A stretch of DNA of 64,000 bases from an uncultured virus (IMG/VR IMGVR_UViG_3300049846_000440) (Duplodnaviria; Heunggongvirae; Uroviricota; Caudoviricetes): the IMG/VR virus record IMGVR_UViG_3300049846_000440. One strand, given 5' to 3'. The notes beneath the pieces are model-generated. The model saw only the letters and a program-made list of their open reading frames with translations. It was not told where the DNA came from and searched no databases. Position numbers and translations under genes: made by a program. Numbering within the stretch: position 1 is the stretch's first letter; every line of letters begins with the position of its first letter. Positions 1,222-59,603 of the stretch are shown here, one piece after another.

Positions 1222-3333
1222 TTAACACATCTCAAATCGATACCTAGATATACCGTCTTTGATTCTTACAGTTTTTAATGGTGAATATACACCTAAAAGG
1301 GTGCGCAATTCTCTGCCCAAGCGAGACGGTGAATACTGTCTCATTAAATCAGCACCACCGGGAATGTTACTCCTGAGTTTACCTAGTAACTCTGTTGAAG
1401 TTATTTCAACAATTGGATCGCATTTCATCACCTGAGTCTCTCCTTCAATCCATAGCTGCAACACTTCTTTCAACGAAGTCGCTGAATCGCTCTCCCTTGA
1501 CGCATCCACCAATTCCTGATGGTGGAAACCCTGAATCCCAAAACGGCTGTTACCCGCTATGACATAAGCCGGGGCTTGCCATTGCTTGAGCCATGCCAAG
1601 AAGTATGGCAGTTCCTTCGCCACATTCGCCTCTTGCAGGTGATTCGACTGGAAAGTCGGCATGTACCCTCCAAACTTCAGCATCAAGATCTTGTCTGCGA
1701 TGGTGTTGTTGAGGGAAGGCAGGATTGCCAAGGACTGGGGATCAGTGTTGCAGGTTAACACGATGCGGCCTTTCCACGGAAATTCGACGGCATCCCTGAA
1801 TTTAGGATGGTAGGTAGCCACAGGATTGGCTACGTGGCGTTTGAGGGTCTCTCCGAAGCGTACAGCCTCGTTCCTATTCGATGCGTAGGCTGCGTCGTCG
1901 ATTCGCCAGATACACGTTTCGGCGGCTTGCTTGTTGAAATTGGTTTTGCCTTGCAGGATATCCGAGGCATCGACGCTTCCACCGAGGGCTGCGCCTATGA
2001 TGCAGCGGCTCATAAAGGTTTTGCCTTGTCCGGCGTCTCCAGCGAGTACCAACATTTGCCCTTGGGCTAGGTGGTGGTTCCTTGCCGACACCCAAAGTCT
2101 CTGGAACCAAGCCAGAAAATAATCCATTTGGGTATTTGACCCGTCAGGCTGCACAAAAATGTTGGTGATGAAGTCGTAGATCCACGGGAACATGGTGACA
2201 TCGACTACATCTGCCTCCTGCATCGCCTCTCTTCGACCGATGTTCAGCACCTTATCGCCGTTCAGGTTGACGATTTCGTCCTTTTCAAACAACAGGGGTG
2301 CAGCGAAGTCGATTTTCCGTGCGTCCTGTACGGCGCACAGAACCTTTTCAGCTCTGGAAATGACTTCCTTCCCACTCGTCTTGTTGGGGACGCCGAAGTT
2401 TCGTAGGTGCATTAAGGAATCGTCCTTGGTTCGGCCCACCCAATCCTCGTCTACATGCCACCAGTAGAGTTTGCCATCATACCACATGGAATCGACAAAG
2501 CCTTTTACCGCCTGTACCTCCCATTTCTGTACAAATGCTTTGCCTAAGACCTTATCCCAAGGCATGAAACTCGCCTCGGCCCTGCTGCTGTAGCAGATCA
2601 TCCCAAAGTCCCCTACTTGGCAGCCGATTCGGTCGATGCCGTCATCCACCCAGAAGAGCGGTCCACGGCAGCCTACCTCAAACTTCCCTTTCCATCGTCC
2701 GGGGTAGAGTTTCTCCACCTCATTTGCCACCTCTTCGATAGGGATAACCAGAGTTTCGTTACCAAATATCTTTTCTGTAGCCGAATCTAGGGTCCAGATA
2801 CCCACCAAGTCCGTAGGAATGGGATTTGAGGCCGCGTTGCGCTCCCAGTGGGTGCCTAATTCAAAGTACTGGGAGTCTTTTAGGGAGCTTTCATCGAATC
2901 CGGGAAGGAGTTCTTTGACTTTCAGCTCCTTCGCCATCGTCTTGAGGAAGCGTTCTGCCAGTTTGTGGTTGTCCAGTAGCAGCGGTTCTTCAAATTCCCA
3001 GATCAACCTAGCCCCACCGGAGAAAGTTTTTGTCGCCCATGTCGGCGCGAAGAGTTCGGAGGCGAACGCTTCCTTGATCATGTCGTCGTTGATGTCCGCA
3101 TCGTAGTCAGCAACGAACCCGTGGAGCATTTTGGCTGGGTTGCTGCGGCTGATGCGTAGATCTCGGTTGACTCCCTCCCATGCCGAGTAGAAGCAGTGGT
3201 TGGTTTTGTTGTTGCTGCACCACGCACGGAATTCCTCCTTGGAGTTCAGGGTCGGACGTTGGCTTGGTTCAGGGGGACAGGGTATCGGTTCGGCGGTTTG
3301 ACTCGCCAAGTTGTTGATTTTGTGTAGGATCAT
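1222..3333 (-). CDS. primase-helicase (N-terminal primase-polymerase-like domain, C-terminal DUF5906/SF3-like P-loop NTPase)
   Basis: Walker A GDAGQGKT, Walker B-like WRIDDA, IVLTCN motif; N-terminal FVADYDA...TFSGGARLIW. Start moved to ATG 3333, which overlaps the upstream stop (ATGA). Confidence 0.8.
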   Translation of the reverse strand: MILHKINNLASQTAEPIPCPPEPSQRPTLNSKEEFRAWCSNNKTNHCFYSAWEGVNRDLRISRSNPAKMLHGFVADYDADINDDMIKEAFASELFAPTWATKTFSGGARLIWEFEEPLLLDNHKLAERFLKTMAKELKVKELLPGFDESSLKDSQYFELGTHWERNAASNPIPTDLVGIWTLDSATEKIFGNETLVIPIEEVANEVEKLYPGRWKGKFEVGCRGPLFWVDDGIDRIGCQVGDFGMICYSSRAEASFMPWDKVLGKAFVQKWEVQAVKGFVDSMWYDGKLYWWHVDEDWVGRTKDDSLMHLRNFGVPNKTSGKEVISRAEKVLCAVQDARKIDFAAPLLFEKDEIVNLNGDKVLNIGRREAMQEADVVDVTMFPWIYDFITNIFVQPDGSNTQMDYFLAWFQRLWVSARNHHLAQGQMLVLAGDAGQGKTFMSRCIIGAALGGSVDASDILQGKTNFNKQAAETCIWRIDDAAYASNRNEAVRFGETLKRHVANPVATYHPKFRDAVEFPWKGRIVLTCNTDPQSLAILPSLNNTIADKILMLKFGGYMPTFQSNHLQEANVAKELPYFLAWLKQWQAPAYVIAGNSRFGIQGFHHQELVDASRESDSATSLKEVLQLWIEGETQVMKCDPIVEITSTELLGKLRSNIPGGADLMRQYSPSRLGRELRTLLGVYSPLKTVRIKDGISRYRFEMC

Positions 3334-3596: not shown

Positions 3597-3754
3597 GAAT
3601 GCGGGACGTTCATTTGGTACATCGTAAATTGTCCCGGACCTGTGCATCCCTCTGACGGGGCTGCGTGATCGGTAAACTTGATCTCCGCAGAATGTTCGGT
3701 TTCGCTGATTACGTTCACGATGCGCTCAAACCCGTGGGGGAATTTGCACTTCAT
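3575..3754 (-). CDS. hypothetical protein
   Basis: Fills the gap in a tightly packed operon (MKCKFPHGF...). Confidence 0.45.
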   Translation of the reverse strand: MKCKFPHGFERIVNVISETEHSAEIKFTDHAAPSEGCTGPGQFTMYQMNVPHSWLQELE

Positions 3755-4352
3755 CTTCTTTGGTAATGGCTGTGTATTGGGCATTTTGCTTAGAGGTTTC
3801 TGCGTGGTAGGTATCAGGTGATACCACTCGGTAATCGAGCGGGTGTCCCGGCTTTACCCATGAGTCGTCCTTCCATAGAATCCGGTTGTTCGGCATCGCC
3901 GCTATTTGTCCGGACCCATCTTCAAGGAGCAAGAAGTGGTAGCATTTGTGTTCTGGCGGGTACAGGGAATATCCGTTGTTTGTGTGGTCTGCGGTGAACC
4001 AGTAAGAACCACGCACCAGTTCGCCGTTGCGTTGCCTGTAGTCGCAGACCATGTCCCGTAGGTACTCGTACTGAGTAACTGCGAAGTCCCAGCCATGGCA
4101 ATCCCACATCTGGAGTTCGTTGAGCGGGTGCGGCCCCTGTGTCGGCAATTCCCAGCGCAGCATATGCAGCGGAACTCTCGCCCACTGTGCGCCGGACTCG
4201 CAAAGGATGGAGAAAGTCCATGCCCTTGACGGTACGGATGTGATTCCGAAGATAACGCAGGGTTCAAACTGTCCTGCGAACAGCTCATCCATTCCACGGA
4301 GGAATCGGCTATCGACAAAGCCGTACAGGTGCTGGGGTACTGAAGCGTTCAT
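3726..4352 (-). CDS. conserved-looking phage hypothetical protein (208 aa)
   Basis: Long ORF in operon direction, globular composition. Confidence 0.75.
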   Translation of the reverse strand: MNASVPQHLYGFVDSRFLRGMDELFAGQFEPCVIFGITSVPSRAWTFSILCESGAQWARVPLHMLRWELPTQGPHPLNELQMWDCHGWDFAVTQYEYLRDMVCDYRQRNGELVRGSYWFTADHTNNGYSLYPPEHKCYHFLLLEDGSGQIAAMPNNRILWKDDSWVKPGHPLDYRVVSPDTYHAETSKQNAQYTAITKEDEVQIPPRV

Positions 4353-7929: not shown

Positions 7930-8371
7930 TTCGACTCCTCTCCTTCATCTCGGCTAACTCAAGTTCCCTAACGGCATTGTAAGCGTCGTAGATACCAGAG
8001 TCGACGGGCCTTATGCTTTCCCGTTTTACCACTGCATTTTTAAGTTTCAACGCTGCCTCACGCCATTTGTCACGCTCCTCGGCCAACCGCATCGCAGCAG
8101 CGAGTAGCCCCTCCCATTTAAGTGGTTTGATCACAGCACACAGATTTTTGCTCCTCTCGTTGTAGTCCGCGACTTGTCTCTCCGCGTTTGCAAGTCTCTC
8201 CCGCAGGGCATCCACCACCCCTTCGCTGCTGGCTCGATCCAGCATCTTGTTAGCGTAATTCCACGCGTGTTTGACGGTATCGTCATCGTTTACACCGCAT
8301 TTAGCCGCGTCTGAGATCATAGCCTGCATCGCCAACCCGGCGTACCAGTGCTTTATCTGTTCTTCAGTCAT
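7919..8371 (-). CDS. hypothetical protein (YAGLAMQAMI motif plus coiled coil)
   Basis: Start at MTEEQIKHWY, ATGA overlap. Confidence 0.7.
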   Translation of the reverse strand: MTEEQIKHWYAGLAMQAMISDAAKCGVNDDDTVKHAWNYANKMLDRASSEGVVDALRERLANAERQVADYNERSKNLCAVIKPLKWEGLLAAAMRLAEERDKWREAALKLKNAVVKRESIRPVDSGIYDAYNAVRELELAEMKERSRNET

Positions 8372-8679
8372 TTGGATTCCTCCTTCACGAAGCACCCGTT
8401 CGGAAGCAGCGTCCCCTTACGATCCTTGATTTGCTCCCACGCTACGTGCAGGCAATCCTGCAAACACGTACCCTGTAGGGCGCAGAGGTTAATCAAGCAG
8501 ACGACGACATCCCCAATTGCATCTTGCATCTCTGCGTACTGCCGTTTGTTCAGGGCATCCGCCAGTTCTCCCATCTCAGAAACGGCCTTGAGGAACTGCG
8601 CCTCCGGCGTTGCGTTAGGGATGATTCTCCTGTCCGTGGCCCAGTTAATTACGTTTTGTTCTAGTTCGTTTAGTGTCAT
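8368..8679 (-). CDS. MazG-like nucleotide pyrophosphohydrolase
   Basis: WATDRRI...QFLKAVSEMGELADA...DAIGDVVVCLI...AWEQIKDRKG...GCFVKE. Confidence 0.85.
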   Translation of the reverse strand: MTLNELEQNVINWATDRRIIPNATPEAQFLKAVSEMGELADALNKRQYAEMQDAIGDVVVCLINLCALQGTCLQDCLHVAWEQIKDRKGTLLPNGCFVKEESK

Positions 8680-8683
8680 ATGT

Positions 8684-8962
8684 TTACTTCGTGTAGCGTT
8701 GTAGTGCCGCGCATTTGCGGGAGCAGAACCGATGGGATCTGCGGTTTTTGATGATCAGTTTGTTGCAGTGTTCGCAGCGAATGTGAGTGCCGACTTCCGG
8801 TACCCGCCAGTCTTTGCGGTTGTTGTATCGGGCGGTGTGTCGCTTGTGCGCCGCCTTCAGTTTCTCTTGGCTATACCGCTCGTGCTTAGGGCGGTACATC
8901 CAGTCATTGCATGAGCAAATCCACTCGCCTTCGGGGATGCTCAGGGTTAGGTGGTGTGTCAT
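8684..8962 (-). CDS. Zn-finger hypothetical protein
   Basis: WICSC...H...H and CEHC...FCSRKC. Confidence 0.65.
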   Translation of the reverse strand: MTHHLTLSIPEGEWICSCNDWMYRPKHERYSQEKLKAAHKRHTARYNNRKDWRVPEVGTHIRCEHCNKLIIKNRRSHRFCSRKCAALQRYTK

Positions 8963-8963
8963 T

Positions 8964-9005
8964 GAAGTGGACTGTAAACCACTTCTGTTCTATTGCGCAA
9001 TAGAA
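8964..9005 (-). promoter_or_regulatory. sigma70-like promoter overlapped by two inverted repeats
   Basis: Minus strand TTGCGC-N18-TACAGT, 8 nt before ATG 8962; perfect 18-bp palindrome TTCTATTGCGCAATAGAA (8988-9005) and GAAGTGG-N8-CCACTTC (8964-8985). Confidence 0.55.
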
Positions 9006-9008
9006 AAA

Positions 9009-9092
9009 TCACCAATCTGAATCATTATCGTGCGTAACCCAAAGCCACGAAAACAAAGCGGACATCGCGACGAACAAAATAAGTTTAATCAT
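9009..9092 (-). CDS. possible 27-aa membrane peptide
   Basis: MIKLILFVAMSALFSWLWVTHDNDSDW; ATGA overlap with the polymerase stop. Confidence 0.35.
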   Translation of the reverse strand: MIKLILFVAMSALFSWLWVTHDNDSDW

Positions 9093-11941
9093 TTTGTGTA
9101 CGCTTTGGTGATTTTTGCTTCGGCAGCTTGGGGAAGCTCAGGCATCCACTCGGGAGGGGTTGACATGATCTTCTCGATGGCGTGTTTGGCTTCCTCCGCC
9201 TTGTCTTCGTCTACCAGACACACCGCTTCGTCATGCGCGTGGAGGATCACCTCGTATCCAGCTTTTTCAAGCCGAAGTAAGCAATCCGCAAACACGTCTC
9301 TGGCAGTTGCCTGAACGCAGTTATGCGCGATAATAGCTGGTTTACCGGGGCCACCTCGTACGGTAAATCTGTTTCTAGGGCCGCAGTTTATCAGGTCGTA
9401 AACTGGTTGCGGGAGTCTATCGGTATTGTCAGTGCTTGTTCCAGTGTAAGCCCGTGATTCAGCCGATAGTACAGAGTTGTTCTTTTTATACCTAAAGATT
9501 CTGCTTGTTTCAGGAAATCCGTAGGTAACCCCATACGATTCGTTAAAGATTTTCTTCTGTTCAAGCAATTCGTTCTCCGAGTTGCCCATCTGCAATTTTC
9601 CTTGTAATACCCTTTGTTGTTGTCGATTCGGTCCAAATCCAACCCGTTGGAGTATGTTGGTCCCATATCCTCCCAGAATTTCTGAAAAGATTCCCACGCT
9701 TTCGCTACAGTTATCCCACGCTCGCCGTAGTTTTTGTAAGCGGGATGCGTCGTATTTTGACATCGAGCCTTCATGGACCGCCACACTGCAAATGCTGGAT
9801 GCTTCGACATCCCATGTTTGGTTCTTTTTTTCCTTAGTTCCGCTTTGTAAAACGGGCATTGCTTTGAGCAGGAATCTGATCTTGGTATTTCCGAAGAGGG
9901 TTTTACTACTGTTTTTCCACAGTCGCATTGAACTTGCCATAGCCGTTTTGATCCATTTGACCCCATTGGAGCGATTACTGTTAAGCACCCAAAACGGGTT
10001 CCTAAAAGGTTTTTTGCTTTTACCATAGCGGGGAGTTACTAGCGAATCCAAAGGGTAGTTACAACATTTTTCAGCGGGTTCCCATCCTTCTTTACCTAGG
10101 AATAAGTGGTCCGGAGTAGCATACACCCCATGTACGTTTATGGTGGGTTTTATACCTTTTAGTACAAGCCCTGAATGCTTAACCCATGAATCCCCGTCCC
10201 AAACCAAATCGGATAATTGCACTAGGTTTAATGGGACCCATCCTTTGTCTGTTAGAACTTCAGTATCTCCAACCAAACAGTTTTCCGTGAGCAGGCCCCC
10301 GTAAACTTTCGTACGCATGAGTTTGCCTAGCCGGGGCATCAGCGCACTCGATCCTCCGTAGGATTTCGGTTGCTTGTAACGAAGTAGCCTTCCACTTGGT
10401 AGTTCTACGGTGAATTCCGGCTTTCCGTCCGCGAGTTTGAACGCCGCATCTAAACCGCTCCAAAGATTGACGTTCGCCGGATTGCTCTTTCGATAATCGT
10501 CTACCTGCTTCCACGAGTTGACCCAGTACCGCTTCTTAGCTTCAGAAGTATTCTGAAACTCCACCAACTGCTCCTCGTTGTTCTTTGATCGGTTCAATGC
10601 AGCGACGAACCTCTCTATATCCCCCTTCTCCAGTTCGGCTCCGAACACCTTCTCATACACCTCTGGAGGTAGGATCTGACCTGCAAAGGTAACGAACTTA
10701 TGCCATCCGCACCCGTACCCCAGTCCGAGAACCCGAGTCTTTGCCACCTGCCGAAGGAAAGGGTCTCCTTCCTTCAATGGTCGCGGGTCTGCGTACCCTA
10801 GAGTAGCCCGTGCGTGGGCCTCGTAGATGTCCATTCCCGACCGAAGAGCGTTCAACATCTCGGTGTCGTTGGCTAGGATCGCCATGCAACGTGGTTCGAT
10901 GTTACTCAAATCGCAGACCACCAGTGTTTTCCCGTTCGGAGCGACGATTCGCTTGCGTAGGTTCACCTCAAAAAGATCCGCCCTAGGCATATTCTGTACG
11001 TTGAAACCTGTATCCCCGCTCCAACGTCCCGTGTGCGCTCCAAAGTACTTCAGCCCGAAGCCCATGTGCCCGTTCGGACGTGTGCGTAGGCGCATCGTCT
11101 TGAACTTCAGCAGGATGGCGTTGATCCTCCGGTAGTCGCTCATTGCCTGCGCAAATGGGTACTTCTCAGAGAACTCCTCCTTCCACAGATCGAAGTCCGG
11201 GGAGTCCTGCGCCATACTCTTTGGTGCGCGGATACCGTGTTTGCGACACTCTTCAGCCAGCGCCTTCGGGCTAAGTACCTTCGCGTCCTCGTTGTCGGCC
11301 CAAGGTATGAGCTTTCTTGCCTGCCAGAGCTTCAGTTCCAAGGCCCGTATGTCGGCCTCGCAGCCCTCCAAATCAATCGGCAGACCGTTGGTACACATCG
11401 TACGGGTATGCCGTGAAAGCTCTCGTTCGTGTTGTGGCCAAGCATCTGAGAGATCTGCCCACAATTTTACGCAAGCCCGTGAATCCTTGAGCGCGTACTC
11501 GGTGACTTCCTGTTTGAACTCCGGGGTCATGGATTCCCACGATTTCCCCGTCATGTTGTCACGGGTACTCTTGTTGACTTCGATCTTGTAGATCGCCGCC
11601 ATCGCTTCCTTGAGCGATCTTGGGTAGCCTAGGTAGGTCACTAGATCCGCCGTGTCGTGCCATTCTCTGGGGGCCACATGAGCCGGGACAATTCCAAGTT
11701 CCTTCAACCGTTCAAACACCGCAGCGTCGAAGTTCGCGTTGTGCGAAAGCCACACAGTGTCGTGGATGCACCCCCAGTCAAACTCCTTCGGGTCGCCTGC
11801 ATACTCGTTCCCGTCATCGCCCACGATGGACACCATGTAGGCGTTGAACTTCTCGTGGTGAGTATAGTGCCAGTAGCCTAGATCAACTACTGAGTATTCC
11901 TTATCGTAATAAGTTTCAAAATCGATTGCGTAGATGTTCAT
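9089..11941 (-). CDS. polA: family A DNA polymerase with 3'-5' exonuclease, interrupted by an intein (950-aa precursor, ~630 aa mature)
   Basis: Exo I AIDFETY, HNANFD; HTGRWSG, NVQNMPR, motif A DLSNIEPR, motif B RQVAKTRVLGLGYG, TEN|CVQATARD, motif C HAHDE. Start taken at ATG 11941. Confidence 0.92.
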   Translation of the reverse strand: MNIYAIDFETYYDKEYSVVDLGYWHYTHHEKFNAYMVSIVGDDGNEYAGDPKEFDWGCIHDTVWLSHNANFDAAVFERLKELGIVPAHVAPREWHDTADLVTYLGYPRSLKEAMAAIYKIEVNKSTRDNMTGKSWESMTPEFKQEVTEYALKDSRACVKLWADLSDAWPQHERELSRHTRTMCTNGLPIDLEGCEADIRALELKLWQARKLIPWADNEDAKVLSPKALAEECRKHGIRAPKSMAQDSPDFDLWKEEFSEKYPFAQAMSDYRRINAILLKFKTMRLRTRPNGHMGFGLKYFGAHTGRWSGDTGFNVQNMPRADLFEVNLRKRIVAPNGKTLVVCDLSNIEPRCMAILANDTEMLNALRSGMDIYEAHARATLGYADPRPLKEGDPFLRQVAKTRVLGLGYGCGWHKFVTFAGQILPPEVYEKVFGAELEKGDIERFVAALNRSKNNEEQLVEFQNTSEAKKRYWVNSWKQVDDYRKSNPANVNLWSGLDAAFKLADGKPEFTVELPSGRLLRYKQPKSYGGSSALMPRLGKLMRTKVYGGLLTENCLVGDTEVLTDKGWVPLNLVQLSDLVWDGDSWVKHSGLVLKGIKPTINVHGVYATPDHLFLGKEGWEPAEKCCNYPLDSLVTPRYGKSKKPFRNPFWVLNSNRSNGVKWIKTAMASSMRLWKNSSKTLFGNTKIRFLLKAMPVLQSGTKEKKNQTWDVEASSICSVAVHEGSMSKYDASRLQKLRRAWDNCSESVGIFSEILGGYGTNILQRVGFGPNRQQQRVLQGKLQMGNSENELLEQKKIFNESYGVTYGFPETSRIFRYKKNNSVLSAESRAYTGTSTDNTDRLPQPVYDLINCGPRNRFTVRGGPGKPAIIAHNCVQATARDVFADCLLRLEKAGYEVILHAHDEAVCLVDEDKAEEAKHAIEKIMSTPPEWMPELPQAAEAKITKAYTK
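9320..10279 (-). mobile_element. intein (320 aa) in DNA polymerase
   Basis: Block A CLVGDTEVLTDKGW, block B ATPDHLF, block F VYDLINCG, block G IIAHN followed by +1 Cys; removing it restores GLLTEN-CVQATARD. Confidence 0.93.
9391..10026 (-). CDS. HNH-type (His-Me finger) homing endonuclease nested in the intein in the +1 frame
   Basis: LLGTRFGCLTVI...WQVQCDCGK, HGMSKHPAFAVWRSMKARC, YKNYGERGITV, LDLDRIDNNKGYYKENCRWATRRTNCLNRR, C-terminal HTH-like GIKRTTLYYRLNHG. Confidence 0.9.
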   Translation of the reverse strand: MVKAKNLLGTRFGCLTVIAPMGSNGSKRLWQVQCDCGKTVVKPSSEIPRSDSCSKQCPFYKAELRKKRTKHGMSKHPAFAVWRSMKARCQNTTHPAYKNYGERGITVAKAWESFQKFWEDMGPTYSNGLDLDRIDNNKGYYKENCRWATRRTNCLNRRKSLTNRMGLPTDFLKQAESLGIKRTTLYYRLNHGLTLEQALTIPIDSRNQFTT

Positions 11942-11959
11942 GCTTTTTGTGTAAAAAAG

Positions 11960-12073
11960 AGGGAAGGTTGGCTTTGTTTCACACGGTGCAACAGCGATGT
12001 CAAAATCAGTGAAAACATCGCCAACATCATCCTGTGACCGAATCTCTCGGTCCACCATTCGCCAACCTTCCCT
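11960..12073 (-). ncRNA. candidate multibranch structured RNA in the polymerase leader
   Basis: Perfect 13-bp closing stem AGGGAAGGTTGGC/GCCAACCTTCCCT enclosing three hairpins. Confidence 0.55.
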
Positions 12074-12116
12074 AATTCGTATTTATACTCCCGCTAGTTT
12101 AGAAGCAAGAGTTGGG

Positions 12117-12362
12117 TTATGATACCCGCCAAATCCGAGCTTCAGAGTCTTCTGCCCGGATGGTGTACTTACGTCCCGTCTTTTTGGTGATACGATACGC
12201 AGTGCCCTGCAAGGAGGATCGCTTGTTCTTCGGTACCCCGAAACTTTCGCCAATCTCCAGTTGTTCGACCGGATACATCGAAGATGCTCCCGGAATCCTT
12301 CCACGTTTCGCCGGAGGAGGGCACGGAATCGAATTTGTAATTTGAGGAGTTACTGCTTCCAT
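12117..12362 (-). CDS. small putative DNA-binding protein
   Basis: YPVEQLEIGESFGVP...RKYTIR...ARIWRV, a pattern common in small phage DNA-binding proteins. Confidence 0.65.
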   Translation of the reverse strand: MEAVTPQITNSIPCPPPAKRGRIPGASSMYPVEQLEIGESFGVPKNKRSSLQGTAYRITKKTGRKYTIRAEDSEARIWRVS

Positions 12363-12366
12363 ACTT

Positions 12367-12678
12367 TCATTTCCATACTTTCAAATGGCACATAAGGCCA
12401 ATGAGTCCATAGTTTGTGATGTCTCTCCAAGTGTCAGCAATGGACTCACAGTTTGCTTCTGCTTGGGTTTTAAACAGGTTCTTCAACCTGTTGATTTTAT
12501 CATTCAAGCGTACTAACACGCCGAATTCACCAAAATCTGCAATATTACCTGAGCCATAGTCCAGTTGTTTTTTCTCAAACAGTTGAATTGCCTGCACGTA
12601 ATACGCCAGTGCAGTCTTTCCCATCTCAGTGGTAATATTGAGTTTCTGCGCGATTAACTCATCAATTTGGTCACTCAT
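12367..12678 (-). CDS. DUF1599 / nucleotide-modification-associated domain 1 protein
   Basis: KKQLDYG...GVLVRLNDKINRLKNL...ESIADTWRDITNYGLI. Confidence 0.8.
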   Translation of the reverse strand: MSDQIDELIAQKLNITTEMGKTALAYYVQAIQLFEKKQLDYGSGNIADFGEFGVLVRLNDKINRLKNLFKTQAEANCESIADTWRDITNYGLIGLMCHLKVWK

Positions 12679-16786: not shown

Positions 16787-17932
16787 TCAGTTTTCTAAGA
16801 AGAACCATTGTTTTGCATCCTTTTCGGATACCAATGCTTTGTATGATCTTTGCACTTCAGTCTCTGAGTTTCCACACATTTCTGCAATCGCGGAAGCGTT
16901 TTTTAGAATAGCCATAGAGTAGGAGATGAAGGAGTGCCGGAGACCGTTGTGAACCCATCCCCCGCATTGGGACGTGAGCTTTTCCAGTTCTTTGTACGGC
17001 TTTCCTTGGATCACGCTTCCAGTGCTGTCCTTGAACTTTTCGAGGTAGTGCCGAATGGTTTTGGAAATTGGGATCAATCGCCTACGGTCCTTCTTCGTGA
17101 TCTGCGCGGACAGCTTGATGTACCCTTCCTGCCAGTCAAAATCTTCCCAGCGTACACGTGCGATTTCCGCTGAACGAATTCCTGCGTACCCTCCTAGTAC
17201 CAGAAAAGGCAGCAGTTGATCCGAGGAGTTATCCAGCAGATATCGGATCGTCTCCGGTCGGATAACTTCTGGGTTTCGGCTTTCGGCTTTTGGTATGGCG
17301 GTCAGTTGCGCTTGGGTCTTGCCCGTATCCGGTACGTGTTTACGGTCTTTCGCCCACGACCAGAGTGCGACCAATGTCCTTCTGTGGTTGATGCGGGTAC
17401 GCCCGCACGTTCCGATGTCCGCCAAGTATTGGTCGAGTTCCTCAAAGGTAATTGACTTCAACAACCGATCCCCAAAATTTTTTGTGAGCCTATTGAGATG
17501 ATGGCGTAACGTGGATAGGTTACGAGTGTGGGTGTCGCCAGATGCTCCACGACACCGAGCAACCTGATTTCCGATGAATTCTTCCACCGCTTTTGATACG
17601 GAGATCGGGTCTCTTTCGTATTTGTGATTGTCAAGATAGAATTTAACGGCATCAATGAGGGGGGTTTCTCCGAGCATGGACTCGCACATCCGGTAGTAGA
17701 TGAACTTATCCGTGTCTGTGTTCGCTCGCTCGACCCGCCCTTGACGAATGTCGTTCAAAATTTCCTCTGCCCGTGCCATTGCTGACTCTAACTTTGACAG
17801 ACTCACCCGTTGCCGTTTCCCGTTCTGCTTCCAACACACTGTGTGTACTGGGCGTTCCCGCAGGATTTGCCTGTAAATTCTAACAGCACCGAACTTTGAT
17901 TGTAGAACTATTGGGAATTTTGTTTGTTGCAT
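16787..17932 (-). CDS. int: tyrosine recombinase / integrase
   Basis: AGIRSAEIARVRWED, TKK, HNGLRHSFISY, CGNS, catalytic Tyr in RSY; N-terminal arm-binding-like strands. Confidence 0.9.
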   Translation of the reverse strand: MQQTKFPIVLQSKFGAVRIYRQILRERPVHTVCWKQNGKRQRVSLSKLESAMARAEEILNDIRQGRVERANTDTDKFIYYRMCESMLGETPLIDAVKFYLDNHKYERDPISVSKAVEEFIGNQVARCRGASGDTHTRNLSTLRHHLNRLTKNFGDRLLKSITFEELDQYLADIGTCGRTRINHRRTLVALWSWAKDRKHVPDTGKTQAQLTAIPKAESRNPEVIRPETIRYLLDNSSDQLLPFLVLGGYAGIRSAEIARVRWEDFDWQEGYIKLSAQITKKDRRRLIPISKTIRHYLEKFKDSTGSVIQGKPYKELEKLTSQCGGWVHNGLRHSFISYSMAILKNASAIAEMCGNSETEVQRSYKALVSEKDAKQWFFLEN

Positions 17933-44088: not shown

Positions 44089-47000
44089 GTGGAAAACGAA
44101 ATTGCTTCGATTAGTCTTACCTCCGACTTCAGTACTGAAGATACCTACAATCAGTACCTCGACCAGTTGATCAACGCGAAAGCGGTTGACATCAAGAAAG
44201 CGGACGAGAACGTCCAAGAGAACGTGGGGGTGGTTGGGAACGTAATGTCCGCTATCGCTCGTGGTGCGGTCAGAAATGTTTCGGATCTTCCAAAGTACGC
44301 AGGGCTTTTGACTGGATCGGAGACGCTTCAGAACATTGGGGTAGGGATCGACGAAGCGGTCAATGCCGTGGCTCCGTTGGATGCCAAGTACAAGGACTCG
44401 TTCTGGGCGACCACCATTCCTGAAGGTCTTGGTCAAGTGCTTGGCATGGCGGCGATAAGCCTTCCGGGTGCCTTGGCTCGCGGTGCGGGTAAGGCTGGGT
44501 TGGTGGGGGCGGCTACAATTGGCGCAAAAGTAGGGCAAAAAGCGGCGGCAGCCGCAGAAGCGGCGGAAGGGGCGGCTTCACTTGCGGATAAAACTCGGTT
44601 GTTAACTCAAGCCGCGTTGCAGTCTGACAAGGCTAAGAAGCTCAAAGACTTCTTCACCAGCGGTTCGACATATTTGATGGGCGGTTCGGAAGGGTACGAT
44701 GCCTACGTTCGTTCCATTGAACAGGGGGATTCTGCGCTTACGGCAGCGGCAAAATCGCTTGGGTATGCGACTATTGCTTCCGCAATTGAGGCGAAGATGA
44801 TGGATCGAGTTCTCGGTCGAGTGACTGGGATGTTCGGAAAAGAAGCCGCTGGCGAGATGGTGAGCGAAACGGGGAACGCCGTACTGAAAGCGGGATGGAA
44901 AGACTTCCTCAAAAAGGACATCGGCAGCGAAATCTGGGCGGGGTTCAAGGAAGAAGCGCAGCAGGCGTTGGCTCAAGACATCATCGTTTCTGGGAAGATC
45001 GATCCTACCTCGTTGCTACAAGAAGGTGCTGCGGGTGGTGTGATTCAGGGTATCGTTGGCGGGATCACAGGGATCAAGACTCCGTTCCGTAAAGTCGTTG
45101 ACAACCTAAATAACAACAACGCTCCTAACACGGCTGTCGAGGTGGCTAAGGATAATGCTAAAAATGTCGGTTTGGAAAGCGATGCTGCGCAAGATCGGGC
45201 AGATAAATTAGCCGCAAAAATAAATGCTGCTGCGGGGACCGCAGAAGAAAACGTAGAGGTATCTCAAACTCCACCTACAAAGACTCCCGAAGTAGGGGGA
45301 CAACCCGTAGCAGGCAGCACACCTACAGAGACCCTCAGTGGTACCCCAGCTCCCGCTCCTGAAGCTACGCCTACTCCTGAAGTAGAGGGAAGACCTGTAG
45401 CAGGTTTAGATCAACCTTTCTTCACCGATAATCGGATCATGGTGCTTTCTGAGGTAAATGGTGTGAAAATTCCATTTTACCTTAGTACTGGTACTGGACG
45501 TAAAACAAATGTACCCGCAGGTAAATGGTATCCTTTTTTTGGAGTAGGAGAAGACGGGTGGCTTAACAAAGGCAGTGAAGAAGACGTAAACAATTTTTAC
45601 GGTAGTGCGGAACTCAAAGCTAAAGCGGAAGAATTAAACGCTAAGATTGGCGACATTCGGGATAAAAAACCTCTGGAAGATGGGGGTGTCCCAGTTGGTT
45701 GGGATGGAAAATCTCCTATAGCCGATTGGCTAAAACCGCTGAGTGTAATAACCCCCAACATCAACGAGGGGTTCTCCCCAGTTTCTCGTCAGGCTAATTC
45801 GCCTGAAGCCAAACAGCAGTTTCAAGCGAACATAGCAAACACGGTTGCACGTATAAAACGCGCATCTGCTTCTGCATCAACGCCTACTCCGACCGTTACT
45901 ACAGCGGCTCCTGTTACGCCATCGACTGCTGCCGAGACTCAGGTATCTGAAGAAGCCGTTGCGCCTGCTGTTGTTTCTGAAGGCGCACCTACGCCTGCGG
46001 CGGCAACCAAGGCTCCGAGTACGCCGAAGAAACGTGCGGCTGCGGTGCCGCCTGCTCCGACTGTCGCAAAGGCAGAAGCACCTGCCGTTGTTGAAGGAGC
46101 TACGCCAACTGTGGAGTCTTTGCGTACCCAGCTTGATTCGGTACGGCAGCGGGCATCGGACGCCGAGATGATTGGCGACACAGAAGAAAGTGAAAAGCTC
46201 CGTGAGCAAGAACGGAATATCGCCAACCAGTTGGACGTAGCGGAGAAGCAAACGAATGGCAAAGGCATCACTCCAGAAGGGGAAGCCTTTCTGAATGACG
46301 TTCTAAAGACTTACAAAACCTACGATCTTACTGATGCGGAAGCCGCTCCTGAAGTCTGGGAAGAATCCGCAGAGTTCTGGGTTCCTGTTGCCAATGCGAA
46401 CGGGATCGAAGCGGACGTTACTACCCCCATCCGAGACGTAATCAAAGCTCTCCTCGCCAAACGCGAAGGAGCTGCGGCTCCCGCCCCTGCCACCAAAGCA
46501 CAGGAATCTGCGGTCAAGAAAGTCGAAGAAAAAGAATCGGCCAAACAAAAGAAGGACGCGGAGAAGGAAGCAGCGAAACAACAGAAGGCAGCCGAAAAGG
46601 AAGCCGCTAAACAGAAGAAGGAAGAAGAACGGCAGCAGAAGGCAGCCGAGCGGGAAGCAGCAAAGCAACAGAAGGCAGCCGCGAAGCAACAACGGGATCT
46701 TGAGAAAGCGGCCAAGGCAGCGGAGAGGGAAGCCGTACGCAGACAGAAGGCAGCCGACAAAGCGTCCAAGGCCGAAGACAACGGTATCGCCGTAACCGTC
46801 AACGATCCGGTTCCTCCTTCTGGCAAACCTGAGAACCTCGCCGCATATGAGGGGTTTATCCTTCGTCTTATCGAAGGCAGTAAAGACGAGGCTCAGTACG
46901 ACTCCAACAGCTTCAGTGCCTTGACCCCATCTGAGCAGGCTCTGAAGTTTGAAGGCGTTGTAAACAAGGCCAAGGTGAGCGGGATTATCCCAAGTATCAC

Positions 47001-50000
47001 GGAACTGGCCGCTACACTAAAAGCCAATAAGGTTGTAATCAAAAAGATATACGCAGACCTAAAGGCTGAGTACGAGCGGCAGTATCCGCCTGCTCCGATT
47101 CCTGAAGGACAGAAGGTTACACAAAAGCAGTTCCAGAACAATGGGTTTACCCGAATCAAAATGATCGGGGAAGAACCGTACTTCGACAACACGGTCACCT
47201 CTGCGGCGAAAGCGATTGACCTCGGGTTGGAACTGACGGTCCCGCTCGGGGTTACTCCTCATCCGAACATCATAATCGACAAGGACCGTAACGTAGTCCG
47301 GGTGTTTCATCCAACGTACGGATCGATTCGGCAACCGGGGGATTATGCGAAGGCGAGGGCAAATGATCCGGCGGTAATCCGCGAAACCCTCAGACGAGAA
47401 GACGCTCGTTTGGAAGCCACGCACGAAGCCTATTTCAAGGACACCGTCAAAAACGAAATCGTACCAAGGTTTGCCGAACTGTCCGACGAGGCGAAGATCG
47501 TTATTTACTCCAGCATAAAACAGGCGGACGGAAAAGTATTGGCTAACCGTAAAGCCAAACTGGAAAAACAAATTGCGAAGCTGACTACGCAATTGGAATC
47601 CCCGTTTTCTGCGTTGGAAGCGGACGCCCTCAACGAACAGTTGAACGCAGCAAAGGCTCAACTCAGCTCGCTGGAGGATCTTATTCAACGGGATATCTTC
47701 AACGCCCCAGAGTTGTTGAACTACGTCGATCCAGACACTCTGTACGATACCCTGACGAATCCCGCGTTGCAGAAGAAACAACTCCCAGCCGAGGACATCG
47801 CCAAGATTCGGGACATCGCAAAGGTTTTCGCGGAGCGCACAGAGTTGATCGAAGAAGGATTGTTCCCCACGATCAACTCCAACCTCAACTCCAAGGTGCA
47901 GCAGTTCTTGCAAGAGCAGTTCCGCAAGGAAGGCAAGAGCAACACCGTTGGTATCGTGGTCAGCATCGGGGATCTCACTGATCCAAACCATGTTCTTCTA
48001 AGTCGCACCATCGAATCCTTTTTCGGAAGTCCGGGAGCGTATAAAGTTCCGGCACCTGAAGGGGATATCCTTGTCAACGTGCGGGATTTGGAAACGGCAC
48101 GGAACAGGTGGCTCGACTATTTGACTTCTGTTTCCAACGAGCTTCTTCAAAAGCGGCCTGAGATCCAGACATGGAACTCGTTTCTCAAATCTGCCGAAGG
48201 TAAACGCAACGCATTGGTAAAGCAGTTGTTTGAAAAAGCGCAGGTTGCGAAACAAGACCTGCTGATCGGTGCGGCCTACATGAACACCGATTTCCTTCTG
48301 ACGGTGTACCCAAATGTAAACCGGGATACCACATTGGACATCGTATCGGACAAACTCCGCAAATCCCTGCGCGAGTACCAACCTGCGTCCGCTTCCAGTG
48401 TGATGCGGTACGGGTCGTTCAAGATGGCGATGAAAGCCGTCACGGATATTCAACGGTCCAAACTAGGACGGATGCAAGAATCCGCTTTGTCCTTGGAGTC
48501 GTTGGAAGAAACGGGGGATGCGCTGTTGGTCGAAGGGATTCGGAATGGAAGCATAAAAGCGACCTCTACGACGAAGTCTTTAAGGGGCGCAATGGATGCG
48601 TTCATAGACGACACGCTCAAGACGACCAAGGTGTCCGTGCGTAAAGGTAAAGTAATACTGGATGCGAATAGCCCCATCGATCTTTGGGATGTGGTTAATG
48701 CTACATCCGTAAACATTCGGGAAGATGTAACCGTTTCCAAAGAAGAATACGGCATACTCAAACGGTTCGCCTTGAACGCGAAACGCACCGTTGAAAAAGA
48801 CCTCGCAACCCGCGCAGCGGCGGCACCTATTTTGCGCGAACAGAATGAGGCTTCCTTGTTCTTTGTTTTAGAGGAAGGGTACAAAGACACGCCTTCAATT
48901 GATCTTCCGAAAACCGAGTCGGGGGACGTTAAACCGTTTGAAAGTTTGACGTTCGCGGAATTGGCGAAGCTCAGTCTGAAGTATAAGTACTCCAAGACCA
49001 AGGTCACCAACGTGATCCGCAGAGCAGTGGATCGTTCGATCTTGGAAGCCAAGGCAGCGGAACTCGGTGTTCGTGGGTTGCTCCAATACGGAACCCCGAT
49101 TGCAGGGATTCAGGCTTACTACGATCCGTCTTCGGACGCCATCGTACTGAACACCGAGAACATTGACGGGACACAGATGGCGATCCGCAAGCTCTACCAT
49201 GAGTTGACGGAGCGGAACTTGGTTTACCTCAACGCTACAAAAGCAGGTAAGGCAGAACTCCAGACGATCTTCAACGGGGCGAAGAACGAACTGATGGCGT
49301 CGATCCCTGTAGTCCTGAAAGAATCAGGGTATGCAAACGTGCAGGAACTGATGGACGACTATGGGTTCGCCACGGAGGAAGAACTCCTTGGTGAGCTTAC
49401 TGCTCGGTACGCGGAACGTATCGCTGACAAGCCGAAGCCTTCTTGGTGGCAGACGCTGATGGCGAAGCTGCGGCTGTGGATGTCCAAACACTTCGGCTCC
49501 CACATCTCTGGGGAAACCTTGGAACACTGGCTTGCCGGAAACATCAAACGGTTCGCCGCTTCCAGCCCTAGCGCGGAGGTTCGTGAAGGAACCCTCTCCG
49601 AAAAACTCCAGCGTATTGACGAACGGTTTAAGCAAGTGGTCGATGCAGGCAATCAGGATATGCAGCGGATCATGGTGGACGCAGCGGCCAATACCGCTGG
49701 TCTGGTTGGTCCCCTCTGGCATTCTGGTACCTACGATCCTGCTTCTGGTGAAGCTCTCACCAAACCTTTGCACCTCGGCACCAGACAGGCTGCGGCAGAA
49801 CGCAGCGTGGGCAAACCCGCCGACGACGAGATCGCTTTGGTGCAGGCGTACCAGACGGAAGACAACGAGTGGCACTGGGACGATGGCCGGGGGACTACGT
49901 CCGAAAGCCTCGACGAAGGCGGATATGCAACGGAAGAGGAAGCCCTAGCCAGCGGAAGGAACTTCGTCTACAACGATCTTAATTTTGACGAACTGTACAA

Positions 50001-53000
50001 CGACGACACGAACATCAGTCGGTTGTTCATCGACGCCAAAAAAGTAAAGCGGGTTGAAGATGTAGGCGGAGCGAACGGCGAATGGGATGCGGAGATCGAG
50101 AAGGCGAAGCAGGAAGGTTATGATGCCATCTCGTACATCAACCGCTACGAAGATCGCGGATCGGTTTCGTACCTCGTGTGGGATACCCCGCAGGTCAGGA
50201 ACGGGGAGCTTGTTACTTACGACGATGCCGGGAACCTGATCCCGTTGTCCGCACGGTTCAACCTCGACAATCCTTATCCTCGGTTCTCCAAGGAGAAGGC
50301 AGACGAGGAACGGAGCGAGTACGAGGAACGCTTGGATCAGCTCCAACTCAAGGTGGAGCAGGGCGAGATCAACTCTGCAATGGATCGTTTTGAGGTCGCA
50401 CCGGAAACTATGGTGTCCTCTGAGTTGAATAGCCCGAACCATTTCTGGACGGCAGCCCGGAGCGTGGCAATCACCTCGGACAACGCATTCAGCCGAGAGA
50501 TATATAACCTCATCAACAAGCTGAATATGCAGCAACTGCGTAAGGTCAACTTGCCTTCGCTGCAAATCCAACTGGAGAAAGGGTTGCCCACTGAAACCGT
50601 ATTCGACCCAGCGCAGAACCTGATCCGTATCTCGGCGGATGCCGGGATGTCTTACGACGAGATGTCTGACGCAATCATGCGTTCAGGGTTACAGGCTGCC
50701 TTGTACAACGCGGCAAGCAATGGGTTGCCTACCATCGCAGGCAAATCTGGTGGTTCCGATCAGCGTGTGACCGAGGCGGTGCAGAAGCTGACGAGGGCGT
50801 TGAAGGCTTCGGGCAGCGGGTTGTCGTTGCAGGATTTCGCGTTACAGGCGTTCGATCCGGCATTCATTGACCGGATGCACATGACCCACCCTCCCGGTAA
50901 TCCTAGCGAGAACGTGGGCCGGATGATCATGGACTCGCTGTACACTTTGCTGGGGGTTGACCCAGCCAAAGGAACCGCCGAGGAAGTGGCGCGTTTGATG
51001 GGGTCTTCGGCAGAAGCTCAGAGGTTTGCCGAGTACAAGGTCAACGAAGCTGCGCGGTTCGGTGGAACCAAGCCGACGACCGCAGCCAAGTCGATTCTAG
51101 GCAATACCCCAGAAGTGGACGCGGCGTTGAAAGGCTCGACGTACTTCAACGAGTACGAGAAGGAGAACGTCGATAACGCCAACGCATGGGTCGCCAACTT
51201 CAACGGGGATCTCGACGGAGCGTGGTTGGCATTGAAGTCCAACTCGACGGAGGCGAACAAGCTAACTACCCGTGAGCAAATCGTAGCCTACGCAATCGTT
51301 GCGCAGAAGTTCGCGGACCTGTCCGCCATCGCGAAGAAGAACAACGAGCCGTACGCCGCGCAGGATCTCATGCGCCAGTCTATTGCAGTACGGCGTGACT
51401 TGGAAACCATCGGTAGCGCGGCGGGGCAGGAACTTCAGATCTTCGCCACACTCAAGCGGATGTTCAACGGAAGCTACATCCGAGCTGCAATCATTGACCC
51501 CATCGTGCAAACGGTAGGCAAGGCGGTGGGAGGCGAAGTGGTCGTGAAAGGTATCGAGGCGGCCCGTGCAACTGTATCCGAAGCAGCGGCGACTTCTACC
51601 GCAGCCAAAACTCAGCAGCTCATCAAGGCAATCGCTGGCGGAAAGGTGGATCAGAACACAGATCAATTGGTGTTCGACTTCTTCAACGCCGTGTACGACC
51701 CAACCAAGCTGAACGACAAGCTGATCGGGGAGATCGCCAAACGGTTGGTGGACTCCACCATTACTCGTTTGACTGGTGGCGTTGCCAAACCCCAAGTCGA
51801 TTCCCTTCGGCAGAACCTGTACAAGTCGGTGGCGCAGCAGTTCAACGCTTTGATTTCGGTCGAACGTGCGAAGGTAGACCCGAACTTGGAATCGATCTTG
51901 GTCGATAATCTGGATCTGGCGGAACGCTCATTTGAGGCGGCAAAGGAACAGTTGCTGGCGAGCAAGACGTTGACTCCTGAACAGGCGGCCTCGGTGCAAG
52001 CAGCGAAGTTTAGTTCGTTCGATTACAACAAGACACAGAAGATCCTGAAGAAGCATCTTGATATTGCCAAGCTGGTGCGGTCTTCGCTGGCGAACCAGAA
52101 CGCTACGCTCGGCAGCCTGATCACGGAGTTGATCAATAAGGCGGGACTCAGTAAGGCAACCGCTGCGGAAGTGGCGAACGCTTTGACTGCTGTCTACAAC
52201 GTCGAGGCTAAGAAGGAAGCTCGGAAACAGATCGACCGCATCGTCAACGCTCAACCGAATACGGCGAAGGTTAAGATCACCGATTTCGAGAAGCTCGTTC
52301 AGTTCTTCAACATCGGCGCGTTCGATACCGAGGAGTATTGGAACGCAGTGGCGAAGCAGAATCCGAAGTTGAATCTTCCCACCTACGATCCCGCGTTCGT
52401 CAAGCAGTTGATGGAAGACGCGGACGCGGTGGCCGCGATGCCGGATAGCTTGGTCAAGCAGGAGCGCATCGTGAAGCTGATGACCCGCGTGGCGGAGATG
52501 CATTCCAAGAACCTGAAAGGGTTCAAACAGAAGATCGCTTACTGGGGTGGTAACGTACTTCCCTCCGTTTGGACTGCGGGTATTCTGTCTGGGGTGCCAA
52601 CCCAGATGGTCAACTTGGTGGCTACTAAGTTGAACGTACTCCTACAATCAGGGTTTCAGGCTCTGGGCTACGGCTACGCTACCTACAAACAAACGGGCGA
52701 TGTGTCGAAGGCGTTGGGGTATTTCAAGGACGTGATCGCTTCGTACCAGACTCTTGCGTCAGTGTTGGACAAAACCAATTCACTGAACGTGGTGAGTAGG
52801 CAAGCGTTGGAGGTAGGGAAGAACCGCTTCGCCATGATGACGGGGCAACCGCTGAGTGTGTTGGAATCTTTGAAGTCCCCCATCCTTCAAGGGCACAAGT
52901 GGGTCGGGCGTTTCATGTCTTCTGCGGATGCATTCAATACCCAGCTTGCCTACGAGATCAACCAGCGGTTGGCGTTCCGGTATGCCAGCATTCAAGATCC

Positions 53001-59520: not shown

Positions 59521-59541
59521 ACTGATTTGGTTTTGTGTTGG

Positions 59542-59598
59542 GCATCCCTGAAGGCTGCGCCCCCGGTTAGGAGGACGCAGGGATTCAGGGATGCAGGG
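59542..59598 (-). repeat. early-region hairpin motif, copy D
   Basis: GCATCCCTGAA-TCC-CTGCGTCCTC-loop-GGGGGCGCAG-CC-TTCAGGGATGC. Confidence 0.8.
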
Positions 59599-59603
59599 TT
59601 TGG

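Follow-up and report, generated by a model that had tools for sequence, protein, structure and literature searches.

Inteins whose endonuclease is not read in the frame of the splicing domain have been described before. Out-of-frame and antisense endonucleases are reported in non-canonical inteins of actinobacteriophages (Gosselin, Arsenault, Gogarten, bioRxiv 10.1101/2025.01.02.630785), and a cyanobacterial DnaX intein with an out-of-frame endonuclease is treated in a further preprint (bioRxiv 10.64898/2026.09.14.751524, citing Gorbalenya 1998), the searchable text of which calls broadly distributed examples of such overlap few. With these cases described, and with a homologue of the element reported below annotated in phage APSE-1 (P45/P46), the architecture itself is already known. 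Here we analyse it in IMGVR_UViG_3300049846_000440, a 64,000-nucleotide stretch (hereafter the window) from an uncultured Caudoviricetes virus in IMG/VR. A family-A DNA polymerase gene on the minus strand is interrupted by an intein (9320..10279), and the DNA of the intein contains, shifted by +1, a complete gene for a putative homing endonuclease (9391..10026). An earlier note, written from the letters of the window without database searches, had all coordinates right and omitted that the gene lies on the minus strand. We consider it quite likely that the element is a self-splicing class-1 intein with a nested +1 gene of homing-endonuclease type, that the intein frame is constrained merely to remain free of stop codons across that gene, and that both are members of a single large family, together with APSE-1 P45/P46.

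The open reading frame (ORF) list gives 9089..12058 on the minus strand, the strand of all features below unless marked otherwise, as a 989-residue family-A DNA polymerase precursor. The ORF matches Pfam DNA_pol_A (E 3.8e-23) and PHROG 17 DNA polymerase (E 8e-77), and blastn of the gene against phage records returned a single short match. The N-extein comprises 593 residues ending ...VYGGLLTEN (10280..12058), and the C-extein 76 residues plus the stop codon (9089..9319), starting CVQATARDVF... with Cys+1 at 9317-9319. Between them lie the 320 residues of the intein (precursor residues 594-913), which begins CLVGDTEV with TGT at 10277-10279 as the Cys1 codon, carries the block B motif TPDH at residues 55-58 and ends in IIAHN, H319-N320 being followed by the Cys of the C-extein. 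Residues C1, T55, H58, D295, G300, P301, H319 and N320 are invariant in an alignment of 26 inteins. In the AlphaFold2 model of the intein frame (26 sequences), two segments are predicted with pLDDT 90-97. The first is the N-terminal lobe of the Hint domain (residues 1-85, 10025..10279), which holds blocks A and B in beta strands and is homologous to the inteins of APSE-1, Shewanella phage SFCi1 and Caulobacter phage RLK; the second is the C-terminal lobe (residues 290-320, 9320..9412, pLDDT 93-95), which holds blocks F and G (VYDLINCGPRNRF ... IIAHN) and is the best-conserved part of the intein family. Foldseek matched the confident parts of the model to DnaB, DnaX mini-intein and gp41-1 inteins (E 4.9e-4 to 1e-3, prob 1.00); four matches reached E 1e-3 or better, and nearly all those listed were inteins or other Hint domains. 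Pfam intein models gave no match to the window intein, and residues 22-70 are the sole part that matches the intein-type phrog_93. The invariant catalytic residues and the Hint fold match bear out the canonical Cys1...His-Asn/Cys intein proposed earlier. The host ORF is continuous in the window, which sets the element apart from a split intein or fractured gene. Because the catalytic residues are intact and the host gene is the polymerase of the phage, we infer that this class-1 Hint intein would splice out of the polymerase precursor.

Both frames are open from intein residue 85 to 296, between blocks B and F, where the nested ORF lies. Its ATG (10024-10026) sits inside CGC TAT GGT and its TGA (9391-9393) inside GAC CTG ATA, and the 211-residue ORF is as complete as the earlier note had read it. 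The encoded protein matches PHROG 374 'HNH endonuclease' over residues 2-208 (E 2.2e-58) and PHROG 3377 'HNH endonuclease' (E 1.2e-47), and, beyond PHROG 374, it matches four further PHROGs labelled 'HNH' or 'restriction endonuclease'. In the protein atlas it falls with a viral 'HNH endonuclease family' and unnamed clusters that have no Pfam family in common. AlphaFold2 modelled it with a mean pLDDT of 90.4 from a 40-sequence alignment, and three parts can be told apart. Residues 1-56 (9859..10026) form a small predicted beta-barrel (strands 15-43; SH3/Tudor-like, Z 3.5-4.7) with a CxC...C cluster whose C34, C36 and C53 are invariant. Residues 73-159 (9550..9810) make up the HNH-like core, LDRIDNN...NCRWAT...N; when the family profile was compared with Protein Data Bank (PDB) sequences all matches were marginal, and in one of them (E 0.086) LDRIDNN..GY..ENCRWAT...N aligned to VDHKDGN...NLRWVT...N of I-HmuI, the invariant N144 and N156 lying opposite Asn residues of NLRWVT...N. 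Residues 160-211 (9394..9549) form a putative helix-turn-helix (HTH; helices 161-200), for which the Pfam HTH_8 match (E 0.0038) falls below the cutoff of that model; HTH_psq is found in 6 and HTH_8 in 5 of the 40 family members. The window protein retains 17/17 family-invariant residues. A 148-residue ORF also lies antisense to the nested gene (9582-10028, plus strand).

Read in the polymerase frame, the nested gene yields a stop-free, unconserved spacer from about intein residue 86 to 289 (9413..10024), which is predicted to be disordered: residues 87-282 of the intein model have pLDDT below 50 and lack secondary structure. This middle region had been called featureless, and so it proved, with zero matches in Pfam, NCBIfam and the PHROGs and a composition led by Ser and Lys (over 210 residues the commonest are S 24, K 19, G 16, N 16, L 16 and R 14). 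How the two frames are constrained was examined at the level of stop codons and of protein identity. First, the intein frame is stop-free in 80 of 82 nested loci, while in the equivalent frame of free-standing relatives none of 80 is open throughout and stops average 11.7 per 100 codons. When synonymous codons of the window gene were permuted, the intein frame acquired 9.2 stops on average and stayed open in 0/20000 permutations. The stop-codon check that the earlier note had called for thus found avoidance in both comparisons. The third frame has about 5.9 stops per 100 codons in the nested and the free-standing set alike. Second, an intein-frame stop requires a codon ending in T followed by a codon beginning with AA, AG or GA, and in nested genes T-ending codons stand before such codons in 8/3727 cases, all eight in two split forms, compared with 2487/12596 elsewhere and 1447/4381 before AA, AG or GA codons in free-standing genes. 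Chance alone does not account for the open intein frame.

Lastly, each of the three frames was translated over one shared set of alignment columns. Nested pairs showed identities of 0.42 and 0.50 in the HNH frame, 0.22 and 0.26 in the intein frame and 0.24 and 0.27 in the non-coding third frame; in free-standing relatives the frame equivalent to the intein frame gave 0.22 and 0.26. Identity in the intein frame therefore equals that of a non-coding frame, and the intein-frame middle shows no amino-acid-level constraint. Apparent motifs there are shadows of the nested frame: where the nested protein has its conserved YG(E/G)RGI, the intein frame reads LRRAWD in the window and LWWSGN in APSE-1. 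Selection acts on the protein in the HNH frame, and on openness alone in the intein-frame middle. The earlier proposal of double coding under selection thus stands for protein sequence in one frame and stop avoidance in the other, and fails for the amino acids of the spacer. We also weighed a folded functional domain in the middle of the intein frame and discarded it, given the absence of any family match, the non-coding level of identity and the predicted disorder.

A homologous allele precisely lacks the intein. The protein P0065 is 669 residues long, that is 989 minus 320; its N-extein is identical to that of the window at 572/593 positions (96%), and from Gln onward it equals the C-extein. 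Across the insertion site its sequence is TEN-IT-QATARD, compared with TEN/intein/CV-QATARD in the window (slashes mark insertion points), with Ile-Thr in place of Cys-Val. A contig from a lake-water metagenome of a different study (run X4) has the same structure at the DNA level: position 9313 is joined to 10280, 966 nucleotides (9314-10279) are skipped, and six replacement letters at the junction encode Ile-Thr on the gene strand. The empty site is accordingly TEN-IT-Q in both sources and not TEN/CVQ, the form that had been predicted for it. Alleles with and without the intein in exteins that are 96% identical suggest recent gain or loss. Differential loss of the intein among APSE polymerases appears in the available text of Rouil et al. 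2020 (PMC7313666).

To place the window element among its relatives, IMG/VR was scanned by alignment. A search with the window intein alone gave zero confirmed relatives and a family alignment was required, with which 528 stretches matched and 490 were confirmed as relatives; the best 80 of these 490 correspond to 79 distinct loci (L084-L162). A match to the HNH-like protein is present in 78 of the 79 loci, always in the +1 frame, and 73/79 have an open nested frame of at least 175 residues within an open host ORF. In an unfiltered set of 65 loci from bacterial genomes, 41 carry a +1 nested ORF of at least 170 residues, 6 a nested ORF in +2 and 1 a non-nested ORF in +2; 1 is broken and 16 have no match. 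The hosts are Bacillota, Proteobacteria, Verrucomicrobia, Spirochaetes, Acidobacteria, Actinomycetes and Saccharibacteria. Among the 79 IMG/VR and 65 bacterial-genome loci none has the HNH-like protein in frame with the intein. A tblastn search of phage records with the nested protein also gave matches within the DNA polymerase genes carried by the Hamiltonella phages APSE-1 to APSE-7, by Shewanella phage SFCi1 and by the Caulobacter phages GB2A, RW, RLK and KcrB. In the APSE-1, SFCi1 and RLK records the match lies +1 relative to an open polymerase frame of 988-1109 codons; the nested gene is annotated as a truncated coding sequence, P46 'HNH endonuclease', in APSE-1 and is unannotated in SFCi1 and RLK, in line with the expectation that gene callers would miss it.

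These data bear on the prospect that the arrangement is an assembly or sequencing artefact, in which paired indels shifted an HNH domain that is really in frame. Nothing we found speaks for this. The +1 offset recurs in the 78 IMG/VR loci, the three cultured-phage records and the 41 bacterial loci just mentioned, no locus has its HNH-like region in frame with the splicing domain, and chance would very rarely leave the intein frame free of stops. Freshwater metagenomes carry the window sequence, and in runs X1 and X3, from two samples, positions 8800-10900 lie in one contig each with zero differences from the window and therefore no indels; either run may itself be the origin of the window sequence. 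An artefact was rejected on the recurrent offset, the stop avoidance and these two identical contigs, and we regard it as vanishingly improbable.

The family extends beyond one gene and one site. A protein search with the intein region retrieved 64 metagenomic proteins, about 50 of them spanning all 320 residues, in polA and in SNF2-type helicases. Two of the polA proteins, P0001 (1532 residues) and P0031 (1144 residues), hold several inteins of this family per gene, and one intein of P0001 is short (about 150 residues) and lacks the middle region. Among the 79 IMG/VR loci, blastp with three reference exteins assigned 55 to polA and 20 to SNF2-type genes, with 1 unclassified and 3 without a recognised C-boundary. 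Insertions in polA fall at three adjacent positions, EN/C.Q (the window), K./CEN (APSE-1) and GGK/C.EN, within a span of four residues and each with its own +1 Cys, the shift amounting to one to three codons; SNF2-type helicases are entered at two sites, and L158 uses a polA site different from the three-position motif. Free-standing relatives of the nested protein are also common, with matches in 1134 phage records and, in 80 IMG/VR loci, genes of 31-52% identity that have no enclosing ORF. In a quick IQ-TREE search with midpoint root, covering 69 nested and 27 free-standing HNH sequences, one branch separates the two sets (SH-aLRT 99; 0/500 label shuffles as low). Within the tree the 14 SNF2-associated copies stand apart from the 55 polA-associated ones, and the window groups with L093 and L144.

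Several derived forms are present. Loci L132 and L137 (3001-3960) are split-intein forms, in which several stops interrupt the intein frame and the HNH gene is intact behind a GGAGG run. Their C-terminal intein piece begins at an ATG that overlaps the HNH TGA (ATGA) and reads MKVYDILNAGPR..., and their extein flanks are polA-like (YGG..EN/C ... SN/CVQA). In L120 (3185-3850), an APSE-like contig, a stop interrupts the nested HNH frame while the polymerase frame of 1278 codons is open; here the endonuclease is decayed and the intein retained. L162 is a short intein with a C-terminal HNH remnant only, and L215 is broken. An HNH-like ORF in the +2 frame occurs in the related inteins L158 (3001-4000; identified by eye) and L170, L171, L178, L179, L188 and L190 (identified by tblastn), L170 being a Morganella morganii genome locus. 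The free-standing relatives, the short inteins of the same family and the single branch between nested and free-standing sequences are consistent with the earlier suggestion, in which a gene of the free-standing kind would have entered a mini-intein.

All 80 nested copies examined have a start codon at the beginning of the homologous region (ATG 56, GTG 23, TTG 1). Most of these starts lie at intein residue 63 or 68 and are preceded by GAAGG, GGAGG or GAGG, Shine-Dalgarno-like runs that double as codons for conserved intein residues (T-E/K-G-W, or DHEV); the starts of the window, L093 and L144 lie at residues 82-85. RNA at the nested start of the window folds no better than shuffled sequence (z +1.41; 192/200 shuffles at least as good), a computed result that fits an unstructured start site. 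Internal initiation is the most likely route to the nested protein. Another route would be a programmed +1 ribosomal frameshift, yielding an endonuclease fused to the N-terminal lobe of the intein. The window lacks a Shine-Dalgarno-like run, as such a route would allow, and the run of four C in ACT CCC CGC TAT G just upstream could permit a +1 slip. However, TAG TAA closes the +1 frame three codons upstream of the ATG, and the C run is missing in the closest relatives, L093 and L144. The start codons conserved in 80/80 copies, most of them behind a Shine-Dalgarno-like run, and the standalone copies of the same gene with their GGAGG run in the split forms L132 and L137 also speak against a frameshift, which we consider highly unlikely.

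We postulate that the parts would work together as follows. The intein would excise itself from the polymerase precursor, and a homing-endonuclease gene of the free-standing type, with its own ATG and TGA, would sit between blocks B and F in +1 relative to the polymerase frame. Ribosomes translating the polymerase would traverse the nested gene in frame 0 and produce a disordered spacer of about 200 residues, to be lost with the intein. The sole constraint on that spacer would be the absence of a stop codon, met wholly at synonymous sites of the nested gene by never placing a T-ending codon ahead of one that begins with AA, AG or GA. The nested protein, with its beta-barrel, HNH-like core and HTH, would most likely arise by internal initiation and would cut or nick the intein-less allele (...TEN-IT-QATARD...), after which repair would copy intein and endonuclease jointly. 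The family would have kept the overlap while spreading among adjacent phage polA sites and into SNF2-type helicase genes. Expression of the nested protein, cleavage and homing are the steps of this scheme that we deduce from the arrangement of the genes and their relatives.

Several observations count against the scheme or soften its support. For the catalytic core, R133 (of LDRID) stands opposite the catalytic His of I-HmuI (of VDHKD) in what is a marginal alignment, and at least 90% of 40 members, whether nested or free-standing, have Arg there. The aligned His is the general base of the HNH motif. Pfam HNH models match 0/40 family members, and the window protein has no Pfam or NCBIfam HNH match at E 0.1 or better. 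Foldseek against the PDB found nothing at E 1e-3 or better for the nested protein (PacI, E 0.29), and PacI (3m7k), although the best of 48161 chains in structural comparison, is a moderate match (Z 6.3, rmsd 2.2 over 73 residues). For expression, no Shine-Dalgarno-like run precedes the nested ATG in the window, nor in L093 and L144, and a promoter scan of 8900-12400 found no promoter-like site on the minus strand. A metatranscriptome (run X15) holds a 165-nucleotide contig at 9956-10120 that is identical to the window and spans the nested start, but it may equally be DNA carry-over and carries no information on transcription, strand or ends. For the comparative evidence, the IMG/VR sample is biased to full-length forms, short inteins being under-represented because the ranking used a full-length query; the separation of nested from free-standing sequences rests on the quick tree search and its midpoint root; and the GC content of nested HNH regions is 0.56 compared with 0.38 in free-standing ones, which lowers the number of stops expected by chance and is addressed by the third-frame and permutation controls.

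Because the I-HmuI and PacI matches are marginal, Arg133 occupies the position of the His and Pfam HNH matches are zero, we label the nested protein HNH-like, its activity being a prediction. The earlier designation 'HNH-type' accordingly holds at the level of PHROG 374 and not at that of Pfam or of the catalytic His. H71 is invariant among the 40 family members and might stand in for the missing motif His; the Arg in an HNH-like core raises the question of its role. The same observations could be explained if the nested gene were a silent or decaying passenger, the +1 ORF unexpressed or catalytically dead and the intein a de facto mini-intein with a long spacer. The window ATG without a ribosome-binding run, the Arg at the catalytic His position and the decay seen in L120, L162 and L215 would all agree with this. 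Yet the nested ORF of the window is intact with all its family-invariant residues kept, and protein-level conservation is found in the +1 frame only. Moreover, the Arg is common to the free-standing relatives in the 1134 phage records and is therefore a family trait rather than a sign of decay, and the alleles with and without the intein in near-identical exteins suggest recent gain or loss. A passenger thus seems improbable to us, and a self-splicing intein with a nested homing-endonuclease-type gene is the reading we retain.

The surrounding genes identify the window as a whole or partial phage genome, with a primase, a helicase-exonuclease, a Holliday-junction resolvase, a large terminase, tail fibre proteins and an endolysin. 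It also encodes an integrase (16787-17932, minus strand), a ferredoxin-like auxiliary protein (3726-4352, minus strand; PHROG 3704) and a MazG-like pyrophosphatase (8368-8679, minus strand). The phage is temperate, carries auxiliary metabolic genes and occurs in freshwater metagenomes. A second HNH endonuclease gene (58186-59676, minus strand; 496 residues; PHROG 1314, E 2e-92) is unrelated to the nested one. A single ORF of 3456 residues (44089-54459, plus strand) has weak matches only, among them an internal virion protein (PHROG 6651).

Beyond the single locus, we suggest tentatively, and with somewhat more reserve than conviction, that the window element belongs to a large and apparently old clade in which a Hint domain and a His-less HNH-like gene are frame-locked. 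This clade would occupy at least five sites in two replication-protein families across many bacterial phyla, would keep its spacer stop-free through synonymous choice, and would include transitions to split, mini- and +2 forms. If that is true, the clade offers a natural series for how inteins gain and lose endonucleases, and overlaps that the searchable literature calls rare or newly reported would prevail in a family that numbers hundreds of members. The element itself illustrates how a selfish endonuclease gene could travel in a self-removing protein spacer without sharing the frame of that spacer. The host would tolerate some 200 junk residues because splicing discards them, and its only cost would be a restriction on synonymous codons. 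The Caulobacter phages and APSE would serve as culturable models for internal initiation within an ORF and for endonuclease-driven intein homing, and would also suit study of the proposed route from mini-intein to invaded intein to split or canonical intein.

In the full text that can be searched, which leaves subscription journals outside, we found no description of a +1 HNH-like gene in polA or SNF2 inteins, and the size, frame fidelity and derived forms of the family of the window element appear under-described there. The described systems resemble it to different degrees. The actinophage inteins (10.1101/2025.01.02.630785) likewise have an endonuclease inside the intein and off the frame of the splicing domain, and invasion by a free-standing gene is proposed for them; in the accessible part of that preprint, unlike in the window, the same-strand case is endonuclease VII-like and in frame 3, and HNH is listed in frame only. 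The cyanobacterial DnaX intein (10.64898/2026.09.14.751524) shares overlapping splicing and endonuclease frames, purifying selection on the endonuclease frame and a proposed secondary invasion of a mini-intein, but it resides on a bacterial chromosome and concerns a '+2 ORF', and HNH is nowhere mentioned in its searchable text. In the fractured genes of Dassa et al. 2009 (PMC2677866) the endonuclease gene takes the same place in the intein, and L132 and L137 have exactly that layout. Those genes are split, whereas the window intein is contiguous and its nested gene wholly overlapped; as far as the accessible text goes, the endonucleases there are GIY-YIG and Vsr-like and the contiguous outcome of the model is an in-frame insertion. 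The ShiLan domain (Arsenault et al. 2025, PMC11855218) offers a parallel outside inteins, a methylase ORF that is open across an out-of-frame HNH whose route of translation is left undecided in the text consulted. It differs in being in frame 3, starting with GTG, occurring in mycobacteriophages and having no splicing domain, because of which the read-through stays in the mature protein.

For the nested core itself, I-HmuI (1u3e) and PacI (3m7k) are the best sequence and structure matches respectively, both marginal, with the His of I-HmuI replaced by Arg. Among the closest systems is the P45 intein with P46 of APSE-1 (NC_000935). This intein is a homologue inserted in the polA motif that the window intein also occupies; the HNH-like ORF within it is likewise homologous (45% identity), has the identical +1 offset and shares the terminal TGA inside GAC CTG AT. 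The annotated P46 covers 2720-3142 of the APSE-1 locus, and the open nested frame extends over 2474-3139. APSE-1 departs from the window in its insertion three codons upstream (YGGKS/CEN..Q compared with TEN/CVQ) and in the GTG with which its nested ORF starts, behind a Shine-Dalgarno-like run.

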